Sequence record: OR906198.1
Strand: one strand, 5' to 3'
DNA length: 64,000 bases
Source: Escherichia phage BP32
In this document: positions 3,434 to 30,560 of the stretch, piece by piece
How the letters are laid out: every line of letters starts with the position of its first letter
Numbering within the stretch: position 1 is the stretch's first letter
Notes under the pieces: generated by a model
Database searches by the model: none
What the model saw: the letters and a program-made list of their open reading frames with translations, nothing else
Told to the model about the DNA's origin: nothing
Position numbers and translations under genes: made by a program

Positions 3434-4984
3434 TTAGTAATGAATTTTAATAATATAGTTTAATGATATATTCCATGGTCTAGTTTCATAACCAATTAAT
3501 CCTTCACGATTAAGTGTACCAAGGGCATCTCTCGGTCCACCCAATTCAAATCCATCATTAGTGAAGTATGAAGCATTATCCCAGTCGGAATATTTTCTAG
3601 TTCCAAGATATCCTTGATAAACGGACGCGCCAAATGGAGCTTCATGTCTTTGGTATTCTCCCCAACCACCAGCGTGTTTATGGTATGACATTTGTTGTGC
3701 CTGAACACCACCAACATGCATTCCGTCACATCCTACGCCAAGTCTATCCTTCCCATAACCATCTTGTCCACGTTGATTTAAAATATGACCGCCCGTGCCA
3801 GCTCCTCTAACAAAAAGACCTCTCATATCAGGAATCCCTGGATTATTCCAATCACCACCAAATCTTGCTCCAACCGTGTTTCTATAATCAGGATATTGAT
3901 CTCCTGACACGGTTCCGCCGTGGCACATAACCCAACCCGGAGGTGCTGAATCACCTGCAAACATCATAATAGTTCCAACTGGAACTCTTTCGGACGCATA
4001 TCTTTCAGTGGCAACAGGTTGATCGCCATTTTTCCACATTCCGCCGCGCGACCAAATTCCGTTTGCTGTAAGATGGTCTAAATTTAAAGAACCATTAATA
4101 GTTTGTCCACCACGAGTATTAATTACATCTGCGTTCCATGCTAATGCACCAGAGCTATCACCTTCAGGGGCAATACCGGCTTGCGTCGTTAATTTAACTA
4201 CTCCGCGCATAGAACCAGTAGCTCCTCGACCATTTAGTGTTTCACCTGTTACTGCAACATCTCCCAAATTACTGTTAATTTCTGATTGTGTTCCTAAACG
4301 TATAACACCCTTATATTCTTGTGTTGCAACAGAATTCATAAAGGTATACGGAGAAATTGCATATCCTTCGCGGAGAGTTCCTTGACGAGTTTGCGCAACA
4401 GTAGATAATTGAACTACACCTCTCACAGATTCTGATGCAGTATCTTCGGAAGGAGCTATTTGTGAAATTAATTTTATTGCAAGTTTTTGTGTTTTTAATG
4501 GAGTCATTGCCGTAGTATCATCAACTCCAGCTAAAGCTGCAGGTGTAGATGATATTTTAATAACCCCGTTTGATGACTCAGACGAATATCTATTTTGGAA
4601 CACATCGTCAGTGTGGTATTTCAGTTTTTGCGGCGTTATTGATGAATTATTATCTGAACCTTCTAATGTTTCTTCATTTGTTGAATAACGCGTTAAACCA
4701 TATTTAGTTTCAGTAGCATTTGGATACAATAATCTTGTTGCTAATGTAGCTGGTGTAACGATTTTGGAATTATTAGTTCCATCTAAAACCTCTTGCTCTG
4801 ACGCAATCATTGCTATTCCTTTAACTTCCATAGTTGCATCAGGAATACCATTTACGCCGATATTACTTATTTTTGATAATGCAGACTGCACTGTCGTGAC
4901 AGTGTCAGGAAAATTCGATCCTGCAGGATCGAATTTAACATATTTTGATTCATTTGATACGTGCTGATATGTATTGTTACTCAT
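3434..4984 (-). CDS. 12: gp12 short tail fiber
   Basis: 516-aa ORF between wac and 11, T4 gene order; ATGA overlap with gene 11 stop. Confidence 0.9.
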
Positions 4985-5640
4985 GCTATTCTCTCAAAAT
5001 AATAAAATACCGTAGGTTGTGTGTGACTATCTAGCGTGACAGTTTGCGCACCTAATAATTGCCAAGTTCCGTATCCAGGTTTAGAAGGAGAAATTATTTC
5101 TTGTTTGAAAGTAATTCCTTTATCAGAGTATTGTTCTAAGATATGTTCTTGGTTATCTAAATACTTAACTTGTATTTTATTTCCTATGGTAGGATGGTCT
5201 TCAAATGAATCAATTGCAATAAATTTTGCAACCATTTCCTGCAGAGCTGTTCTAACGGCACTGGTAAATTCGATTGAAGTCATTCCGTTAGTAGCTTTAA
5301 CTGGAATACCAAACATGTTAACAATAACTGGGTCACCTGGTTTGGCTGAAGTATCATTGACAGTTCCTTCAAATGACCAATAGTCTGTTTGCTGCACGCC
5401 AGTAGGAGATACACCGCTTATATTAACTAATACAGCTCCAACTTGTTGCTCTGCCATATTTCTAACATCATTGATAGCAGATTCTACATTTGGGTCATAA
5501 AACCCTTTTGCTATTTGTGAAATTGTTACAGCGCCTACTGGCTGATTATTCATAACCGAAATATCATTTTTCTTAGTTCTAAAACCAAGAAAATCTGCTA
5601 AGCGGGAAATAACTCCCGCTTTATTATTAAGTAAACTCAT
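4981..5640 (-). CDS. 11: gp11 baseplate wedge / short tail fiber attachment
   Basis: ORF track gives 225 aa; start placed at internal ATG (MSLLNNK..., 219 aa) whose ATG overlaps the gene 10 stop (TAATG). Confidence 0.85.
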
Positions 5641-21075: not shown

Positions 21076-21333
21076 ATGAAAACTTTCAAAGAGTTTGCTA
21101 CAAAAACTACTATCACTGAATCTTCTCACGGTATGGAAGTAAAGCTTGGAATGGCTTTAGCTGAAGCTGAGCGTCTTTTCTCTCGTATTAAAGAACTTGC
21201 TGCTGCAGTCGATCCTTCATCTTTTAAAGGAGACCAAACTAAAGTTAAAGCGCTTTTAGCATTATGCTCTGATGCAGGCGAAATCGCTAAGAACGGTTCT
21301 AAGATGAAGAAACGATTAGAAGATTTAAAATAA
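21076..21333 (+). CDS. internal-protein-like ORF at ipI locus
   Basis: 85 aa; N-terminus MKTFKEFATKTTITE resembles the capsid-targeting leader of T4 internal proteins with an I-x-E prohead-protease site; located after 57B. Confidence 0.6.
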   Translation: MKTFKEFATKTTITESSHGMEVKLGMALAEAERLFSRIKELAAAVDPSSFKGDQTKVKALLALCSDAGEIAKNGSKMKKRLEDLK

Positions 21334-23657: not shown

Positions 23658-24323
23658 ATGCATTTTTATCTTTATAAAATAACAAATAAAATTAATAATA
23701 AAATTTATATTGGTGTGCATTCTACCGAAAATTTAGATGATGGATATATGGGTTCTGGTAAATTATTAAAAAGAGCCCAAGATAAGTATGGTATAGAAAA
23801 TTTTTCTAAAGAAATATTAGAGTATTTTGATGATAAAGAATCTATGCTTGAAGCCGAGAAAAATATTGTCACAGAAGAGTTTTTAAATAGACCAGATGTG
23901 TATAATTTAAAACTTGGCGGTGAAGGTGGATGGGACCATATAAATATTCCTGGGATGCTAAACCAGAAGAAAGATGCTAGCTTAAAAGGAGCTAAATCGT
24001 TTAAATCACGTTTTGAAAATGATATTTTACTTCAAGAAAAATATCGTAAAATTGGTTCAAATGTATTTAAACGTTTGTGGTCAACTCCTGAATACAAGGA
24101 AAAATTTTTAAATAATAGCAGATTTTTAAATAAGCATCATACTCCTGAAACTATTAATAAAATGAAAGAAATTCACGCTAAAAATAATCATCAGAAAGGA
24201 GAAAAGAATTCCCAATTTGGTATGATGTGGATTCATTCATTAGATGAAAAAGTTTCTAAACGTATTAAGAAAACTGACCCAATTCCAGAAGGATGGTTTA
24301 AAGGTCGAAAAATGAAATTTTAA
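23658..24323 (+). CDS. segB: GIY-YIG homing endonuclease SegB
   Basis: 221 aa from ATG 23658 (ORF track start 23550 would overlap tRNA-Tyr); GIY-YIG motif YLYKITNKINNKIYIGVHS; embedded in tRNA cluster. Confidence 0.8.
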   Translation: MHFYLYKITNKINNKIYIGVHSTENLDDGYMGSGKLLKRAQDKYGIENFSKEILEYFDDKESMLEAEKNIVTEEFLNRPDVYNLKLGGEGGWDHINIPGMLNQKKDASLKGAKSFKSRFENDILLQEKYRKIGSNVFKRLWSTPEYKEKFLNNSRFLNKHHTPETINKMKEIHAKNNHQKGEKNSQFGMMWIHSLDEKVSKRIKKTDPIPEGWFKGRKMKF

Positions 24324-24326
24324 TTA

Positions 24327-24402
24327 CGGGGCATAGCTCAGAAGGAAGAGCAAGGACCTTCTAAGTCCTAGGTCGTAGGTTCGATCCCTACTGCCTCGAC
24401 CA
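24327..24402 (+). tRNA. tRNA-Arg (anticodon UCU)
   Basis: acceptor CGGGGCA/TGCCTCG, anticodon loop cuUCUaa, T-arm GTAGGTTCGATCCCTAC, encoded CCA. Confidence 0.85.
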
Positions 24403-24418
24403 ATTAAGTGAGGAAAAT

Positions 24419-24769
24419 ATGAAAGGTAATGTTTATTTAGTAGTTCATGATTTAACATTCTATTTTAATCACAATGATACTGTTATTTCTGAACGTGTAA
24501 TTAATTTACTTTATCAGCATGCAGATTATGTTTATGTCGAAAACGAATACGGTCATTGGCAATTTCTCAAAAATCGTTCATTTGGTTTAGATGGTTACGA
24601 ATATTTTGAACGTAAAGACCTTTTAGATAAAATTCCGTTATCTACACAATATCAAAATCATAAGTCTTTATATAAATGCCGTCCAATTCGAAATGCTGAA
24701 TCTGCGTATGAAGCAATTGATTTATGGCGTAAACGCCGTGAACAGATTGATGCATTAAAAGAATATTAA
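24419..24769 (+). CDS. hypothetical protein
   Basis: 116-aa ORF with GAGGAAAA RBS directly after tRNA-Arg. Confidence 0.6.
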   Translation: MKGNVYLVVHDLTFYFNHNDTVISERVINLLYQHADYVYVENEYGHWQFLKNRSFGLDGYEYFERKDLLDKIPLSTQYQNHKSLYKCRPIRNAESAYEAIDLWRKRREQIDALKEY

Positions 24770-25107
24770 GAAGCCGGGTCGCTACCGGTAAGTCGTCGGA
24801 CTGATGTTCCCTGGGTAAGGACTGGCATTAACAAATCTTTACGATCTGTTAATGTCCCCTTACATCACAGCAGAAACGGCGCACCGAATTATCGATTCGA
24901 GGAAATATCTTTGCCGTAAGCCGAGTAGCGTTTTTGACGGAACGTTCGGATATGGTCGAGATATGGCCTTTTAAAATATTGAGTAGCGTCAACTGCTTAA
25001 TAACCGGGTTCGAATCCCGGCGTTTCGTACAAACACTTGCCTTAGCAGGTGGAACCCCGACAAGGTTGCCGCAAGGCTTAGCCCCAGCCGAAAGGTTGGG
25101 GCTTTTT
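24770..25107 (+). ncRNA. structured non-coding region; candidate stable small RNA(s) (T4 rnaC/rnaD-like position)
   Basis: about 340 nt, GC-richer than surroundings, no credible ORF; tRNA-like T-arm CCGGGTTCGAATCCCGG at 25004-25020; ends in GNRA-loop terminator. Confidence 0.35.
25081..25107 (+). terminator. intrinsic terminator
   Basis: GCCCCAGCC-GAAA-GGTTGGGGC stem-loop followed by TTTTT. Confidence 0.6.
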
Positions 25108-25241
25108 GATATCTAGGCCTTTCTGGACCTCTCTAGGCATCATTTAGTTTATACCCTTTATAATATATTATCCTATCCTTTAATTGCCCATCCCTGCCCT
25201 AGAATTCCCTAAAACTTTTTAAAAATTTTTTCACAAAACTG

Positions 25242-25270
25242 TTTACACCCTTGTCATTCCATGGTACTAT
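25242..25270 (+). promoter_or_regulatory. T4-type early promoter
   Basis: -35 TTTACA, 17-bp spacer, -10 TACTAT; shares identical 21-nt GGTACTATACAACTATCAACT with promoters at 40499 and 41938. Confidence 0.65.
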
Positions 25271-25312
25271 ACAACTATCAACTACTGATACAAAAACAAC
25301 TTGGAGAATGAA

Positions 25313-25576
25313 ATGGATAATTACGGCGAACTGTTCAACTTCTTTATGAAATGCGTTTCAGAAGATTTCGGTCGTACAGTGAATGATATTAAAGTTATCG
25401 GTCCTGATCATCCGATGTTTGAAACTTACGCAGTAATGGGTAATGAAGATGGTCAGTGGTATACTGTAAAGGTTGTGATTAACATGTTCACTGCTGAAGG
25501 TTATGTTAAACTGTCTTCTAAAGTTTACCATGATAACGACGAAATCGCAGAAGAATATTTTAATAATATGAAATAA
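25313..25576 (+). CDS. hypothetical early protein
   Basis: ORF track starts at TTG 25301; ATG 25313 behind GGAGA RBS gives 87 aa. Confidence 0.6.
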   Translation: MDNYGELFNFFMKCVSEDFGRTVNDIKVIGPDHPMFETYAVMGNEDGQWYTVKVVINMFTAEGYVKLSSKVYHDNDEIAEEYFNNMK

Positions 25577-25577
25577 G

Positions 25578-25612
25578 TTTACATAGGCTCATGATTGAGA
25601 TATTATGAGCCT
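25578..25612 (+). promoter_or_regulatory. T4-type early promoter with overlapping hairpin (PeSL-like)
   Basis: -35 TTTACA (25578-83), 17-bp spacer, -10 TATTAT (25601-06); 8-bp inverted repeat AGGCTCAT/ATGAGCCT (25585-92, 25605-12). Confidence 0.55.
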
Positions 25613-25631
25613 ATAATTTGAGGAAACTGTT

Positions 25632-26162
25632 ATGTCTCTTTATACCGAACTGAATGAAACTTCCGAAAAATCTTTTGATGGTATCTTATCAATAATGCAA
25701 AAGCAGGTATTAGAACAGCTTAGTGAAGCCGCAAGCAACGGACATAAGGCTTGTCGAATCCCAAGCCCACATCGTCGCCTGTATGAACGCCCTCTTATTA
25801 ATTGGCTAGAAAGCGAAGGTCTTACGGTTAAGATTTGTCCTGCCAAATTTGATATCCCACGTATTCTTAATATTTACTGGGATAAACCGATTGAGAAACC
25901 GATTGAGAAAAGTGACCCTTGGGTTGTTAATGTAAAAACATATGATAATGGATGCTCACTTGAGGTGTCTGCTGTAATTAAAGGCACTCACGGTGAAAAA
26001 TCGTGGGGTTGGCCTGGTAAAGATAAAGAAATCGTGTTAAGTGTAAAAGCTACTAGTATTAGTACTCCTATAGCTAAAAGCATTATCGCCGCCGCTGTTG
26101 AAGAAGCTGAACGAATTTGTAAAATTAAAAATAGTTTACATCTCTTAAATAGCATGATATAA
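25632..26162 (+). CDS. hypothetical protein
   Basis: 176-aa ORF; contains 12-bp tandem duplication (PIEKPIEK) at 25887-25910. Confidence 0.65.
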   Translation: MSLYTELNETSEKSFDGILSIMQKQVLEQLSEAASNGHKACRIPSPHRRLYERPLINWLESEGLTVKICPAKFDIPRILNIYWDKPIEKPIEKSDPWVVNVKTYDNGCSLEVSAVIKGTHGEKSWGWPGKDKEIVLSVKATSISTPIAKSIIAAAVEEAERICKIKNSLHLLNSMI

Positions 26163-26205
26163 TTCTTCCACAGATTTTAATTTTTAATCAACCTAAGGAA
26201 ATACT

Positions 26206-26799
26206 ATGAACACACTGAAGAAAATTGTTGAGTTTATTCGCACTAAACTTGGTTCTGCTATGGCTAAAAATCTATCTGTTGAAGAACAGTATACTGCTGC
26301 AGCAGCAAAACTACTTGATAAAATTAAAGATCTAAAAACTGCTTCTGTTAAATCTATTAATGAAGAAAAACGTATTCGTGAACTTGTTATCGAAAAGAAT
26401 CGACAGGCCGAATCAAAAGAGCGTGAAATTCGTAAACTTCTTTCCGAAGGTCAAGATGTAACAATGCATGCTAAACTCGGTTTGCTATATCGTCGAACAG
26501 CTGAGCAGTTGACTACTAAAGCTGATGGTTATGCTGAAATGCGAATTGAAATCGCCAAGAAAGTAGTTGAGTTAGATGATGCTCGTCAAGAACTTGCGGT
26601 TAAATTGGAATATATCCGTGAAACTCGTGCGGCAAATGCCCTTGGAATTAGTACTGCCGATGATGTAGTTGAAATCGCAGCACTGACTAAAGTTGATATT
26701 GAAGATACTCTTGCTCGAGTTGAAACCTTTAACGGTAATATTTCTGGGGTTGAAACTACCTCTGCCGATGTTCAGGAATACATTAATTCTCTGAAATAA
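26206..26799 (+). CDS. coiled-coil protein (possible PspA/IM30-like)
   Basis: 197 aa, amphipathic N-terminus then heptad-rich helices; similarity to PspA is impression only. Confidence 0.6.
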
Positions 26800-26803
26800 T
26801 GAT

Positions 26804-26821
26804 AAGGGGCTTCGGCCCCTT
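26804..26821 (+). terminator. UUCG-tetraloop stem-loop (weak terminator or stability element)
   Basis: AAGGGGC-TTCG-GCCCCTT directly after stop codon; no strong U-run. Confidence 0.4.
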
Positions 26822-26840
26822 ATACTTGGAGTAAATAGGA

Positions 26841-27455
26841 ATGAAAATGAAAATGCAAAGTGATTTCAATTCAATGTTTGAAGAGTTCCAAAGACAGGTT
26901 GATGTTCCAGACCAATTACTAAATGCTCTTAAACGTATGGCAGAAGGACGTAATTACTATTGGGGGTCTTCATATGAAACTGATGAAAGTCTTTCTGGAA
27001 GATTTTCTAGAGGTAAAAAGTCTTTAATACGTCCTGGAATACTCATTAACAGTATTGAATCAATTCATTCATTGACGTGTGATTTTGATGTTGAATTTAC
27101 TGATTTCATTTCTCCTGAATGGACAGTTTGTTATTTAAATGACGATTATGATTATCTTGGCGTTTATAGTTTAAGTGACGCATGGTTTAAACGTAATTTA
27201 CAAAAGTCAAATTTATTTTATATTGATACTACGGTAAAATTTCAGGGAAAGAAATATTTCTTTACTCTTATAGTTGACTCTGAAACAAAATATGAAAATA
27301 AGCGTATTCTTAATAAAAGGAATATCTTGACTATTATTGATGATCTTTTTGATAAATTCGTGGAAAATCCCAATTTTGAAAGCGATTTATTACTAGAAAA
27401 ATTTGTTAAGGAATGTAGAGAATATGTCAAAGCCATCACTATACCTTCCAAGTAA
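26841..27455 (+). CDS. hypothetical protein
   Basis: 204-aa ORF; C-terminus EKFVKECREY encodes the RBS of the next gene. Confidence 0.65.
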   Translation: MKMKMQSDFNSMFEEFQRQVDVPDQLLNALKRMAEGRNYYWGSSYETDESLSGRFSRGKKSLIRPGILINSIESIHSLTCDFDVEFTDFISPEWTVCYLNDDYDYLGVYSLSDAWFKRNLQKSNLFYIDTTVKFQGKKYFFTLIVDSETKYENKRILNKRNILTIIDDLFDKFVENPNFESDLLLEKFVKECREYVKAITIPSK

Positions 27456-27804
27456 ACCTTTGAAGTATGAACCAAAGCACCAGATAATTTCTACCGATGT
27501 ATTAATGGGTCCTGTTGTAGTTGTATCATTTATAGCTGGAATGGTTATAGACGTTATGACTGCTAATAAATTTGATGTAATATTTGTGTCAACACTAATT
27601 CTTCCAATGATAGTTCCATTTTTATTAGTACCTGTAAATTGGGTAGGATACTGGTATCAAGGAAGACATTATCGTAAACGCGTACGTGAATGGAAAGCTC
27701 AGTGTAAAAAGATTAAAAAGGAACACCAGCTTAAACTAGATATGTATGAATTTAACGAAATTATGAAATTTGTTAAGGAATCACGATGCAAAAGCCAAAA
27801 CTAA
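27424..27804 (+). CDS. small membrane protein, paralog family member A
   Basis: ORF track starts at TTG 27403; ATG 27424 gives 126 aa; two hydrophobic helices; C-terminal FVKESRCK. Confidence 0.6.
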   Translation: MSKPSLYLPSKPLKYEPKHQIISTDVLMGPVVVVSFIAGMVIDVMTANKFDVIFVSTLILPMIVPFLLVPVNWVGYWYQGRHYRKRVREWKAQCKKIKKEHQLKLDMYEFNEIMKFVKESRCKSQN

Positions 27805-28148
27805 ATAAAGTCAAATATTCGTTTCCTGAGGTATTATTAATTCTTGCCGTATCAGTATTTGCAGCTCTTGCGGGTAGTCTTATTGGATTAATGATTGATT
27901 GTATTATTTTAAACATCGATGGTTCAGCAATTATAACAGAGGTTTGGAGTGAACTTCGTTTTACTATAGCGATTTCATTATTTTCATTCTTTGGCACTAT
28001 ACTATATTTTCATTATGATAATTTTAACATAAATTGGCAAAGAAAAAAGGATTACAAAATACAATTAAAAGAATACAATAGCTACATGTCTTATATTGAA
28101 AATGAATCAATGAAAGAGTTTGTGAGCGATTGCAGGAAAATTAAATGA
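27786..28148 (+). CDS. small membrane protein, paralog family member B
   Basis: 120 aa; two TM helices; C-terminal EFVSDCRKIK; overlaps upstream and downstream genes. Confidence 0.6.
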   Translation: MQKPKLNKVKYSFPEVLLILAVSVFAALAGSLIGLMIDCIILNIDGSAIITEVWSELRFTIAISLFSFFGTILYFHYDNFNINWQRKKDYKIQLKEYNSYMSYIENESMKEFVSDCRKIK

Positions 28149-28633
28149 TTTTAAAAACTCGCTGGTATGATTTAGATGATGGGGATGATGGCATTTCAGT
28201 TGATAGAGTTGACTGGAATGGCTGTTCCGAAGATATGAAAAATTTGTTGATTAGGGAGTTTAGAATGGGATATCAACCAGTTAAGCCATCTACTGCAACA
28301 GATGATAAATTCGTGTGTATTTATAATGGTCGCGCTAAGTTAACGAACGCTGATTGGTTCACAGATAAGATTATGATTCTGTGGTATATTATTAGTCTTC
28401 CTGTGACATCATTCGTATTTTACTTTTTTATAAAAAATCCAATGGACAGAATAGGAGATTGGATTCTTTTAACCATACTTGTTAATATTTTTACAGCAGC
28501 AATATTATCTGGGATATGGTACACGTTCATTGAAATGCCATGGCGGCTACGCAGACAACAAAAGATTTTTGATGAAAAGAAATATACTCAAAATTTAAAT
28601 AACTTTATCACTGAATGCAGGAAATTAAAATGA
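28145..28633 (+). CDS. small membrane protein, paralog family member C
   Basis: 162 aa; two TM helices; C-terminal NFITECRKLK; ATGA overlaps at both ends. Confidence 0.6.
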   Translation: MILKTRWYDLDDGDDGISVDRVDWNGCSEDMKNLLIREFRMGYQPVKPSTATDDKFVCIYNGRAKLTNADWFTDKIMILWYIISLPVTSFVFYFFIKNPMDRIGDWILLTILVNIFTAAILSGIWYTFIEMPWRLRRQQKIFDEKKYTQNLNNFITECRKLK

Positions 28634-29070
28634 AAACATTATCGGCTGGTATTATCTTTATGACAGAAGATAAAGATTTATTTATGGGTCGGGTTACTGG
28701 TTCTCGTAAGCCTGGAATGATGGCACATCGCTGGGATATCCCAAAGGGCCGCGTAGAAAATTCTGATTTAAACGCACTAGATGCAGCACGAAGAGAATGT
28801 TTAGAAGAGACTGGTTTTAGCAATTATAATCCAGACCTTCTAGAAGACCTAGGTGTATTTAAATATTCTAGTAATAAAGACTTACAGTTATTTTATTATA
28901 CGATTCCAGTAGAGCATGAGATGTTTAGAAATTGCCATTGCGAGTCTTATTTTGAAAATAAAGATGGCGTTATGATTCCAGAGATGGATGCTTTTGCTCT
29001 TATTCCTCGTACTCAGTGGCAATATGTGATGGGTCCTTCACTTTACCGAATAATGAACAGCCTCTTTTAA
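28630..29070 (+). CDS. nudE: Nudix hydrolase NudE (e.1)
   Basis: Nudix box GRVENSDLNALDAARRECLEETGF; ORF track start 28615, but ATG 28630 has AGGAAA RBS and ATGA coupling (146 aa). Confidence 0.8.
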   Translation: MKTLSAGIIFMTEDKDLFMGRVTGSRKPGMMAHRWDIPKGRVENSDLNALDAARRECLEETGFSNYNPDLLEDLGVFKYSSNKDLQLFYYTIPVEHEMFRNCHCESYFENKDGVMIPEMDAFALIPRTQWQYVMGPSLYRIMNSLF

Positions 29071-29601
<531 letters not shown>

Positions 29602-29606
29602 AGTGG

Positions 29607-29635
29607 TTTACTTTCTCCTAGAATTGTGATAGTAT
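29607..29635 (+). promoter_or_regulatory. T4-type early promoter
   Basis: -35 TTTACT, 17-bp spacer, -10 TAGTAT, upstream of denV. Confidence 0.6.
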
Positions 29636-29660
29636 ATTCACAGTTACTTGGAGGGATAAA

Positions 29661-30077
29661 ATGACTCGTATTAATTTGACTTTAGTATCTGAACTTGCTG
29701 ATCAACATTTAATCGCAGAATACCGTGAATTGCCACGCGTTTTTGGTATAGTTCGTAAACACGTGGCAAATGGTAAGCGGGTTAAAGATTTTAAAATATC
29801 TTCCGAGTTTATTTTAGGTTCTGGTCATGTTACGTTCTTTTACGACAAGTTAGAATTTTTGCGAAAGCGTCAATCAGACATTATAATGGAATGCTTAAAA
29901 CGTGGGTTTAGTATAAAAGATACTGAAGTTCCTGACATCAGCGATATTCCAGCAGAATGGAAAAATGATTATAATCCATGCAAATCAGCTATTAAATTGA
30001 GTCAACAACGACTCGATAAAAAAATTTTAATGAAGCCACACTGGTACAAGTATTACGGCAAAAATATTTACATTTAA
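29661..30077 (+). CDS. denV: endonuclease V (pyrimidine dimer glycosylase)
   Basis: 138 aa, N-terminus [29 protein letters not shown] as T4 DenV. Confidence 0.9.
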
Positions 30078-30086
30078 AGGAAACAT

Positions 30087-30560
30087 ATGAAAACATATCA
30101 AGAATTTATCACTGAAGCAGCTATTAATTCTCAAATTATTGCTGAATCTTTTACTGATCTTTTGAAATTTAAAAAAGGTCAAAAAATCACTGCTGTATTG
30201 GATGATGGTACAGAAGTTGAGATGGATGTACAGGGATATAATTATGCAGTAGATGGAAAACTGTATAATAAATCCCATGCTAAATTTGATTCATTTGACG
30301 ACTTTGTTAATACAGTTGAAGATGAAAAAACTCGTAGATCAATTTCAACTGGTGATGCTAAGGTTCTTATGGCACACGGTCATGAACGTATTCGCGCTAA
30401 ACAGAATAAAATGGGTGAAGATAATTTCGCATTAGTTGGTTATCAATCTGGTAAACAAACTTATGGCTATCAGCGTACTGCTACCATGTATAATAAAAAT
30501 GGTAAAATCGCTTTCGTGAATAGTAAAGGTTCTATTCAGTACGTCAAATCATTCAAATAA
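30087..30560 (+). CDS. internal-protein-like ORF with capsid-targeting leader
   Basis: 157 aa; N-terminus MKTYQEFITEA matches the T4 internal-protein targeting consensus with I-x-E cleavage site; body does not match ipII/ipIII as I recall them. Confidence 0.65.
   Translation: MKTYQEFITEAAINSQIIAESFTDLLKFKKGQKITAVLDDGTEVEMDVQGYNYAVDGKLYNKSHAKFDSFDDFVNTVEDEKTRRSISTGDAKVLMAHGHERIRAKQNKMGEDNFALVGYQSGKQTYGYQRTATMYNKNGKIAFVNSKGSIQYVKSFK

Follow-up and report, generated by a model that had tools for sequence, protein, structure and literature searches.

Shared C-terminal tail codons at the junctions of a gap-free T4-type accessory-gene array and a natural deletion of e.2 between two of them

The gene content of hyperplastic regions in T4-type phages is altered by promoter early stem-loop elements (PeSLs), repeated boundary elements that excise and insert genes (Arbiol et al. 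2010, PMC2839356; Comeau et al. 2014, PMC4122927). Deletions and tandem amplifications in T4 also arise at 6-10-bp (2-10-bp) microhomologies (Srikant, Guegler and Laub 2022, PMC9391042). We analysed a stretch of 64,000 nucleotides from Escherichia phage BP32 (record OR906198.1; hereafter, the window), in which genes e.5, e.4, e.3, e.2, and nudE follow one another with zero intergenic DNA (26841-29070). The block is a gap-free accessory-gene array in the hyperplastic region that is flanked by the tRNA genes and the lysozyme gene e, and the e-to-tRNA region is among the most variable parts of T4-type genomes. Its four gene junctions carry short repeats, and all four proved to be codons of one C-terminal motif, hydrophobic-x-x-F-[I/V]-x-x-C-R, usually followed by K. 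Our overall reading, to which we give a probability of roughly 0.7, is that the proteins of the array share a tail module, that the codons of the tail also serve as the start region of the following gene, and that the e.3/e.2 tail pair has acted as a crossover.

Among described systems, PeSLs are the closest to this locus, but the features that define them are absent here. In both cases, short conserved repeats flank non-essential genes of hyperplastic regions (PMC2839356, PMC4122927), and both kinds of repeat end in a Shine-Dalgarno sequence plus ATG, as seen at 4 of 4 junctions in the window. Recombination between copies removes or inserts the enclosed gene, here for the e.2 pair only. However, a PeSL is intergenic, contains a sigma-70-like early promoter and a stem-loop terminator, and spans several tens of nucleotides, whereas the junctions described here have no intergenic space, promoter, or stem-loop; the repeat is part of the coding sequence, owes its conservation to a peptide motif, and offers only 9-22 nt of exact homology. 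Neither PeSL paper mentions e.2 (PMC2839356, PMC4122927). The microhomology events of T4 are similar in that short repeats flanking accessory genes serve as breakpoints for loss or tandem gain, and since breakpoints of 2-10 bp are used there, the 9-nt exact core in the 21-22-nt repeat is more than sufficient as a breakpoint (PMC9391042). Those breakpoints were arbitrary and laboratory-selected, whereas the motif here is functionally constrained, and the product is an in-frame protein with the hybrid tail FVIDCRKLK and with its ATGA coupling to nudE kept. The PeSL picture would be extended in this way: in blocks without intergenic DNA, constrained coding and ribosome-binding site (RBS) sequence can be the joint, and the product is in frame and coupled.

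Gene names were taken over from the T4 record (NC_000866), and all genes, motifs, and repeats described in the window lie on the plus strand. The e.5 homolog (26841-27455; 204 residues, soluble, ending …LLLEKFVKECREYVKAITIPSK) carries the motif as LEKFVKECR (27393-27419), whose codons contain AAGGA, the likely Shine-Dalgarno sequence of e.4 (ATG at 27424). The e.4 homolog (27424-27804, start as in the T4 annotation; 126 residues, two transmembrane [TM] segments) has a variant tail, …EIMKFVKESRCKSQN, with the motif codons IMKFVKESR at 27760-27786; the e.3 ATG at 27786, which overlaps the Arg codon, has AAGGA 6 nt upstream of it. In the e.3 homolog (27786-28148; 120 residues, two-TM, tail …SMKEFVSDCRKIK) the motif is MKEFVSDCR (28110-28136), and its Arg-Lys codons supply AGGAAA, which is likely to be the Shine-Dalgarno sequence of e.2. 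The e.2 homolog (28145-28633; 162 residues, a soluble N-terminal part and then two TM segments, tail …NLNNFITECRKLK) has LNNFITECR (28595-28621), and its AGGAAA is likely to serve nudE (28630-29070), which encodes a Nudix hydrolase (Pfam NUDIX, 1.7e-13; T4 annotation) and is the downstream anchor of the array. The nudE start falls within the last repeat copy. The original prediction held that the upstream proteins end with similar tails. The shared motif is real, but e.5 runs 11 residues past FVKECR (…FVKECREYVKAITIPSK) and e.4 ends …FVKESRCKSQN, 5 residues past its motif; 3 residues follow the motif in both e.3 and e.2. Successive genes overlap by 32 nt (e.5/e.4, 27424-27455; identical in the T4 annotation), 19 nt (e.4/e.3, 27786-27804), 4 nt (e.3/e.2, 28145-28148), and 4 nt (e.2/nudE, 28630-28633), the last two being ATGA stop-start overlaps. 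The genes from e.5 to nudE are probably translationally coupled.

The motif is strongly significant as a peptide; it is confined to this locus within the window and is widespread at the same locus in other phages. In the six-frame translation of the 64 kb, e.5, e.3, and e.2 are the only matches to the strict pattern [FW][IV]xxCR, and in each it lies close to the C-terminus. A hidden Markov model (HMM) of the tail, trained solely on protein families other than e.2-e.5 from other phages, was run against 894 six-frame segments of the window; the e.2, e.5, and e.3 tails were the top three (E = 2.6e-4, 0.055, and 0.084). We fetched 41 nudE-anchored loci from IMG/VR, plus several annotated phages. 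In the 41 loci, [FWYLM][IVL]xxCR occurred in the last 14 residues of 103 of 1,320 plus-strand open reading frames (ORFs) vs. 1 of 631 minus-strand ORFs; the pattern was of our own definition and many loci are close relatives, so the 103 are not independent, and a fairer count is the ~22 BLAST clusters (13 two-TM and ~9 soluble) into which tail-bearing ORFs fell when the tail was removed. Positions outside the search pattern were also conserved: position -3 was hydrophobic (F, L, or I) in 19 of 22 clusters, positions -2 and -4 were acidic or polar, and Lys occurred at +2 and +6. The conserved positions are spaced i, i+3, i+4, i+7, as in an amphipathic helix. The tail is evidently a conserved peptide module common to many otherwise unrelated small proteins, two-TM as well as soluble, at this locus in T4-like phages that infect Enterobacterales. 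Some 22 seemingly unrelated protein groups sharing one tail would provide a concrete experimental handle and a single pattern for annotation.

Carriers of the tail were found in Tequatro-, Mosig-, Dhaka-, and Gaprivervirus phages of Escherichia, Shigella, and Yersinia, and in phages of Klebsiella, Enterobacter (CC31-like, CIP9), Serratia (CHI14; Muldoon, with an FIKYCK variant), and Erwinia (Cronus). Tail genes lay between e.6 and nudE in the window, T4, JS09, VR5, IME281, K65, CC31-like phages, CHI14, Cronus, and Muldoon; the motif was missing from the four most distant nudE loci. A literature search for e.2-e.6 or the tail motif found no description of either, older subscription papers being outside its coverage. 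In the Muldoon locus (4248-4544 region), one small TM protein upstream of nudE ends HDEFIKYCKDKY, with Lys replacing the otherwise invariant Arg. The small TM genes upstream of nudE in Muldoon are labelled 'putative holin or antiholin', which is the annotator's label only; the holin, antiholins, and spanins of T4 are other genes.

Codon usage in the tail separates selection on the peptide from selection on the nucleotides. Phe is encoded by TTT or TTC, Ile by ATT, ATC, or ATA, and Cys by TGT or TGC, and the Arg codon may be AGA, AGG, CGT, CGA, or CGC, even inside the e.2 family alone. Since Arg is kept while codons switch between AGR and CGN, an element at the RNA or DNA level is excluded, and selection evidently acts on the tail as a peptide. 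In degenerate copies, Cys was replaced only by Ile, Val, Leu, or Ser, and Arg was retained. These replacements place the Cys on the hydrophobic face of the helix, and a metal-binding or disulfide role for it was rejected as unlikely on the same ground. A start codon follows 5-17 nt past the Cys codon in 16 of 22 clusters, and the GGA/AGG element ahead of it comes either from the two variable codons (AAGGAA, GAGGAA, AAAGGA) or from Arg-Lys (AGGAAA). Each of the four junctions in the window has AAGGA or AGGAAA 5-11 nt ahead of the ATG. A second, nucleotide-level constraint sits over the peptide constraint, and this double constraint (peptide plus Shine-Dalgarno and start) would keep the 9-22-nt stretches near identical at successive junctions. 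What the original prediction missed is that the repeats code for a C-terminal peptide of wide conservation, evidently under protein-level selection, whose codons double as RBS.

In the nucleotide sequence, AAATTTGTTAAGGAAT (repeat family D7) is an exact direct repeat of 16 nt, with copies at 27399-27414 and 27766-27781. The second pair, GATTGCAGGAAAATTAAATGA (28128-28148) and GAATGCAGGAAATTAAAATGA (28613-28633), matches ungapped at 18 of 21 positions and is nested in a 30-nt direct repeat with 77% identity (28119-28148 and 28604-28633), whose common core TGCAGGAAA lies at 28131-28139 and 28616-28624. The two 30-nt copies are spaced by 485 nt, which is the size of the e.2 indel. Every repeat copy is located at a gene junction, and the second pair contains the stop-start overlap, ATGA at both junctions; both pairs lie where the original prediction placed them. 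The 16-mer was unchanged at both junctions in 9 of 9 Tequatrovirus loci, among which e.4 and e.3 diverge by up to 16%, and GAATGTAGAGAATATGTCAAAGCCA was the same in Tequatrovirus and Mosigvirus, whose e.5 proteins are ~48% identical. Such invariance is as expected for a stretch that is read in two frames and also has an RBS role.

Similarity at the starts of e.2 and nudE (28145-28179 vs. 28630-28663) extends over ~35 nt in different frames, with GCTGGTAT.AT.T..ATGA matching at 15 of 19 positions. The similarity past the ATG could be read as a duplicated junction of 60 nt, but the Trp of e.2 and the S-A-G-I of nudE are each conserved across genera. It may be what is left of such a duplication, or two conserved coding sequences may resemble each other by chance.

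One pair of repeats coincides with a natural gene deletion. In Yersinia phage ZN18, the exact e.3 sequence of the window was found up to …GATTGCAGGAAA, followed directly by the exact e.2/nudE junction of the window, TTAAAATGAAAACATT…. Exactly the 485-bp e.2 unit is gone, the tail of the product is the hybrid named above, and the ATGA overlap with nudE is retained. BLAST segments overlapped by 21-22 nt at the boundaries of the e.2 indel, and we infer that the crossover fell inside the common TGCAGGAAA (28131-28139 / 28616-28624). A fused-junction query was matched without interruption in at least 43 of the best 60 records, including PST, PP01, UFV-AREG1, T4_ev151, and T4_ev240; in T4, RB55, and RB59 it was matched in two pieces, 485 bp apart. 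Records without e.2 number roughly 50-60 of ~505, as estimated by setting the results of the e.2 protein search against those of the junction search. Relatives of e.2 with the same tail are present in Dhaka-, Gapriver-, and Mosigvirus, indicating that e.2 is ancestral and that the e.2-less state is a deletion. Three e.2-less loci that we examined had mosaic backgrounds and two junction alleles, GTGATTGAT and GTGAGTGAT (ATT, AGT), both of which also occur in e.2-bearing genomes; these alleles are compatible with recurrent loss of e.2 or with later recombination. The deletion joint would explain a presence/absence polymorphism that is common among therapeutic and environmental T4-like phages, although the practical consequence is modest.

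The proposed explanation can be set out as follows. Each of these e.x proteins would end in a short amphipathic-helix motif facing the cytoplasm. Because the genes overlap, the tail codons would also form the Shine-Dalgarno sequence and start region of the next gene, the former being supplied by AAGGAA (Lys-Glu codons) or AGGAAA (Arg-Lys codons). The double constraint would hold stretches of 9-22 nt near identical, and since T4 recombination uses homologies this short, the stretches may behave as crossover points. The e.3-tail/e.2-tail pair has given the precise in-frame loss of e.2 that is now segregating in natural Tequatrovirus populations.

Two further variants of e.2 were observed. Escherichia phage vB_EcoM-UFV05 (UFV05; OP555981; 3001-3321 of the fetched locus) has an in-frame e.4(1-31)::e.2(88-162) chimera with e.3 deleted. 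The crossover was at a 5-nt CCTGT microhomology within the first TM segment; the tail and nudE junction were kept, and the protein is present on 5 contigs. In T4 (NC_000866; 3653-3961 of the fetched locus), e.2 is annotated with 102 residues and is followed by an unannotated gap of 160 nt before nudE, and in T4T it is annotated as e.2a plus e.2b. The T4 gene looks frameshifted, most relatives having an intact gene for 162 residues.

As bare nucleotide similarity, the repeats are only moderately unusual. The reported pairs rank 8th and 21st among the 2,926 pairs of gene-start junctions in the window, and the pairs that score equal or higher reflect generic reuse of RBS or promoter sequence (AGTGAGGAAAATATG, TGTGGTATAAT, and AGGAAAATAAAATGAAAAC, the last at 21076). 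AGGAAAWTAAAATGAAAAC recurs at the unrelated gene start at 21076, and the second repeat is partly ordinary T4 RBS consensus. It is nevertheless most improbable that an RBS and translational-coupling consensus, i.e., what any two T4 gene starts share, accounts for the whole similarity. Constraint on RNA is insufficient to conserve Phe, Ile/Val, Cys, and Arg through synonymous codons, and the codon data already contradict this account; the motif is confined to one locus in 64 kb, its strand enrichment is 103:1, and an HMM built from unrelated families recovers the tails of the window. The original prediction had itself allowed for junction similarity due entirely to RBS consensus; the motif at the peptide level exceeds such a consensus. 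The codon data also bear on the view that the junction is primarily a recombination site, a coding counterpart of PeSLs, and that peptide conservation is its by-product. A DNA site would conserve nucleotides, whereas here amino acids are kept and codons vary across genera. The precise loss of e.2 between two copies fits such a dedicated cassette-exchange element, as does a block with no intergenic space to house a PeSL, and downstream of the e.3 tail junction Mosigviruses have ~3 kb of additional genes, one of which, ORF133c, again ends FIKECRGK. However, of 72 indel segments that distinguish related loci, the e.2 indel alone has the motif at both of its ends, the others having overlaps of 9-84 nt elsewhere, and a scan of IMG/VR for the exact FIKECRK-ATGA junction gave 5 hits, namely 4 expected e.3/e.2 genes and 1 chance match, with no reuse in a foreign context. 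We therefore regard a dedicated exchange element as quite unlikely.

A common origin of the membrane proteins was the other possibility raised by the original prediction, which saw in e.4, e.3, and e.2 three two-TM proteins derived from one gene duplicated together with its junction. Topology prediction confirmed two hydrophobic segments in each, with basic N- and C-terminal flanks, and none in e.5. The three proteins have a C-terminal extension, predicted to be helical, of 33-49 residues past the second TM segment, ending in the motif, and the positive-inside rule suggests an N-in/C-in topology with cytoplasmic tails. An ancient tandem duplication of e.4, e.3, e.2, and perhaps all two-TM tail genes, after which only tail and topology stay recognisable, would account for their similar size and architecture and for the tail itself. 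The N-termini of e.3 and e.4 are both M-[QS]-K-P-x-L, with 14 of 18 nucleotides identical after the ATG, a likeness that is suggestive only as a sign of kinship. The bodies, however, were similar only at the level of controls. BLASTP among the three aligned the tail alone (E = 0.005, 0.043, and 0.12), segment-preserving shuffles of the bodies gave z = 0.83, 0.13, and -0.73 (no similarity), and hhalign comparisons of the tail-less family profiles scored 11.9-19.4 vs. up to 18.8 for the reversed-profile control, the closest pair (C5-C6) reaching 19.4. In the same test, other pairs of tail-less clusters (C0-C8, C0-C21, C21-C22, and C1-C8) scored 27-37 vs. reversed scores of <=19; the method is evidently able to detect real relationships, and some tail genes are detectably related. 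Pfam keeps e.5, e.4, and e.2 apart as Phage_T4_Y06P (PF26876), Phage_T4_Y06O (PF26873), and Phage_T4_Y06M (PF26896). Close homologs (85-97% identity) bear precomputed PF26876 and PF26896 matches, and the e.4::e.2 fusion protein bears PF26873; the window proteins had no match in a Pfam release older than these families. No Pfam family for e.3 was found, nor any record joining the three families by a common tail. Duplication of a membrane-protein gene would also leave unexplained the soluble e.5 and ~8 other soluble clusters with the same tail. Paralogy of e.2, e.3, and e.4 could not be shown beyond the tail and the shared topology, and we consider the duplication rather unlikely.

Several results weigh against a shared tail module with a crossover role. 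The tail of e.4 departs from the motif (FVKESRCK, with Ser at the Cys position), and the ranks of the nucleotide repeats, the RBS content of the second pair, and the self-defined pattern with its related loci have been noted. The idea that junction homologies act as recombination joints finds direct support in the e.3/e.2 and e.2/nudE pair, but no event was found for the 16-mer pair: a synthetic fused-junction query for deletion of e.4 through the 16-mer gave only normal two-piece matches. With 1 of 72 indel segments bounded by the motif, the role as a recombination joint is one documented case and not a general mechanism. AlphaFold placed the motif in the terminal helix of e.5 (183-198) and, in e.2, at the end of a helix continuous with TM2. 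These placements suggest that the tails are helical, but the models are of low confidence and poor (predicted local distance difference test scores 62.7 and 51.9), and a fold search returned nothing informative. As for the role of the tail, a common docking helix that takes different effector bodies to one shared partner is a tentative suggestion.

A stronger form of the docking idea is that the tail might be an address label, a constant docking helix that delivers small, fast-evolving effectors, both membrane-bound and soluble, to a single conserved partner from host or phage and is at the same time a frame-preserving site of cassette exchange. We think this unlikely; if true, it would couple function and gene shuffling in one element of 20-30 nt. 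Polymorphic toxin loci have conserved boundary motifs such as VENN in CdiA. There, too, a short peptide motif marks a module boundary and its coding DNA offers homology for swapping the neighbouring variable module, but VENN parts a constant N-terminal region from a variable toxin tip, whereas the tail is the extreme C-terminus of whole small proteins, which are not known to act in toxicity or immunity. The capsid-targeting sequence of T4 internal proteins, reportedly described by Mullaney and Black in 1996, is likewise a constant terminal peptide of ~10 residues on unrelated, fast-evolving accessory proteins from the same genomic neighbourhood. This likeness is a design analogy only: that sequence sits at the N-terminus, is cut by the prohead protease, and sends proteins into the capsid, whereas the tail is C-terminal and mostly on predicted inner-membrane proteins. 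The capsid-targeting sequence is mentioned in the T4 microhomology study (PMC9391042).

The window is from a Tequatrovirus. The region 26700-29200 had 98.7% nucleotide identity with Escherichia phage HY01, and 513 phage records were matched. Upstream of the array are e.6 (26206-26799) and a G+C-rich stem-loop at 26802-26823, between e.6 and e.5, which forms the upstream boundary of the gap-free block and is annotated at the same place in T4 record L13089. Scanning of the four junctions for promoters and terminators revealed none that was strong or convincing, this stem-loop upstream of e.5 being the only one, and L13089 has no promoter or stem-loop annotated between e.5 and nudE. Rfam over 24000-30500 gave no RNA family except the tRNA at 24327-24399. 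Downstream of nudE, gene e (29107-29601) has its own late promoter, TATAAATA, at 29076-29083, and is followed by denV (29661-30077). Unlike in T4, denV comes directly after e, without ipII or ipIII in between (window 29601-30560). The ORF at 30087-30560 begins with MKTYQEFITE, the capsid-targeting sequence of internal proteins, and has a match to DUF7412.

Homology searches showed the protein families of the array to be narrow. e.5 matched phrog_2607 at 1e-109; otherwise, scans of e.6-e.2 against Pfam, NCBIfam, and PHROGs gave only PHROGs of unknown function, the generic label 'membrane protein', and sub-threshold noise, and did not confirm e.6 as PspA-like. In 5.8 billion proteins, e.3, e.2, and e.5 had 45, 51, and 14 clusters, respectively, and an e.2 profile had 15 representatives in 1.84 billion proteins; searches of these two large databases found no relatives outside T4-like phages. 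No function is assigned to e.2-e.5 in annotations or searchable papers. The labels that several GenBank records give to e.3 or e.4 ('sulfurtransferase', 'DNA primase', 'phosphoserine phosphatase') have no sequence support and look like annotation artefacts. Two candidate relatives were rejected. One (P0114), a Gram-positive surface-repeat protein, looks spurious. The other (P0123), from a 524-bp ENA metagenome scaffold, has an e.2 tail on a Firmicute-like N-terminus; it is most likely an assembly chimera and was not used. That scaffold has the end of e.2 (20 codons) and 70 nt of nudE between unrelated AT-rich sequences, and the upstream frame resembles the N-terminus of a Firmicute RNase R.

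Stretches of 20-30 nt are common to other gene starts in the window, at 25313/41974, 24419/42972, and 32771/44924 (TATACAACTATCAACTAC, AGTGAGGAAAATATG, and TGTGGTATAAT…GAGGAGA.TAA.ATGACT). These are probably reused promoter or RBS sequences, or PeSL-like elements.

A second family of C-terminal motifs, G-W-[VLYHQ]-x-S-S-x-x-C-stop, was found in the same hyperplastic region of other T4-like genera and has no members in the window. Examples are EGAWVSSSALC, GGWVASSHTC, and QGWVSSSYSC, which occur on runs of small ORFs: 4231-4536, 4546-4818, and 4828-5025 in the JS09 locus, and, in three other fetched loci, 1148-1432 and 1441-1674 (L028), 146-421, 415-648, 658-894, and 1217-1414 (L034), and 2326-2619 and 2619-2885 (L022). 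From this G-W-V-S-S-S-x-x-C-stop tail family comes a hint that tags of this kind could be a general feature of the locus.

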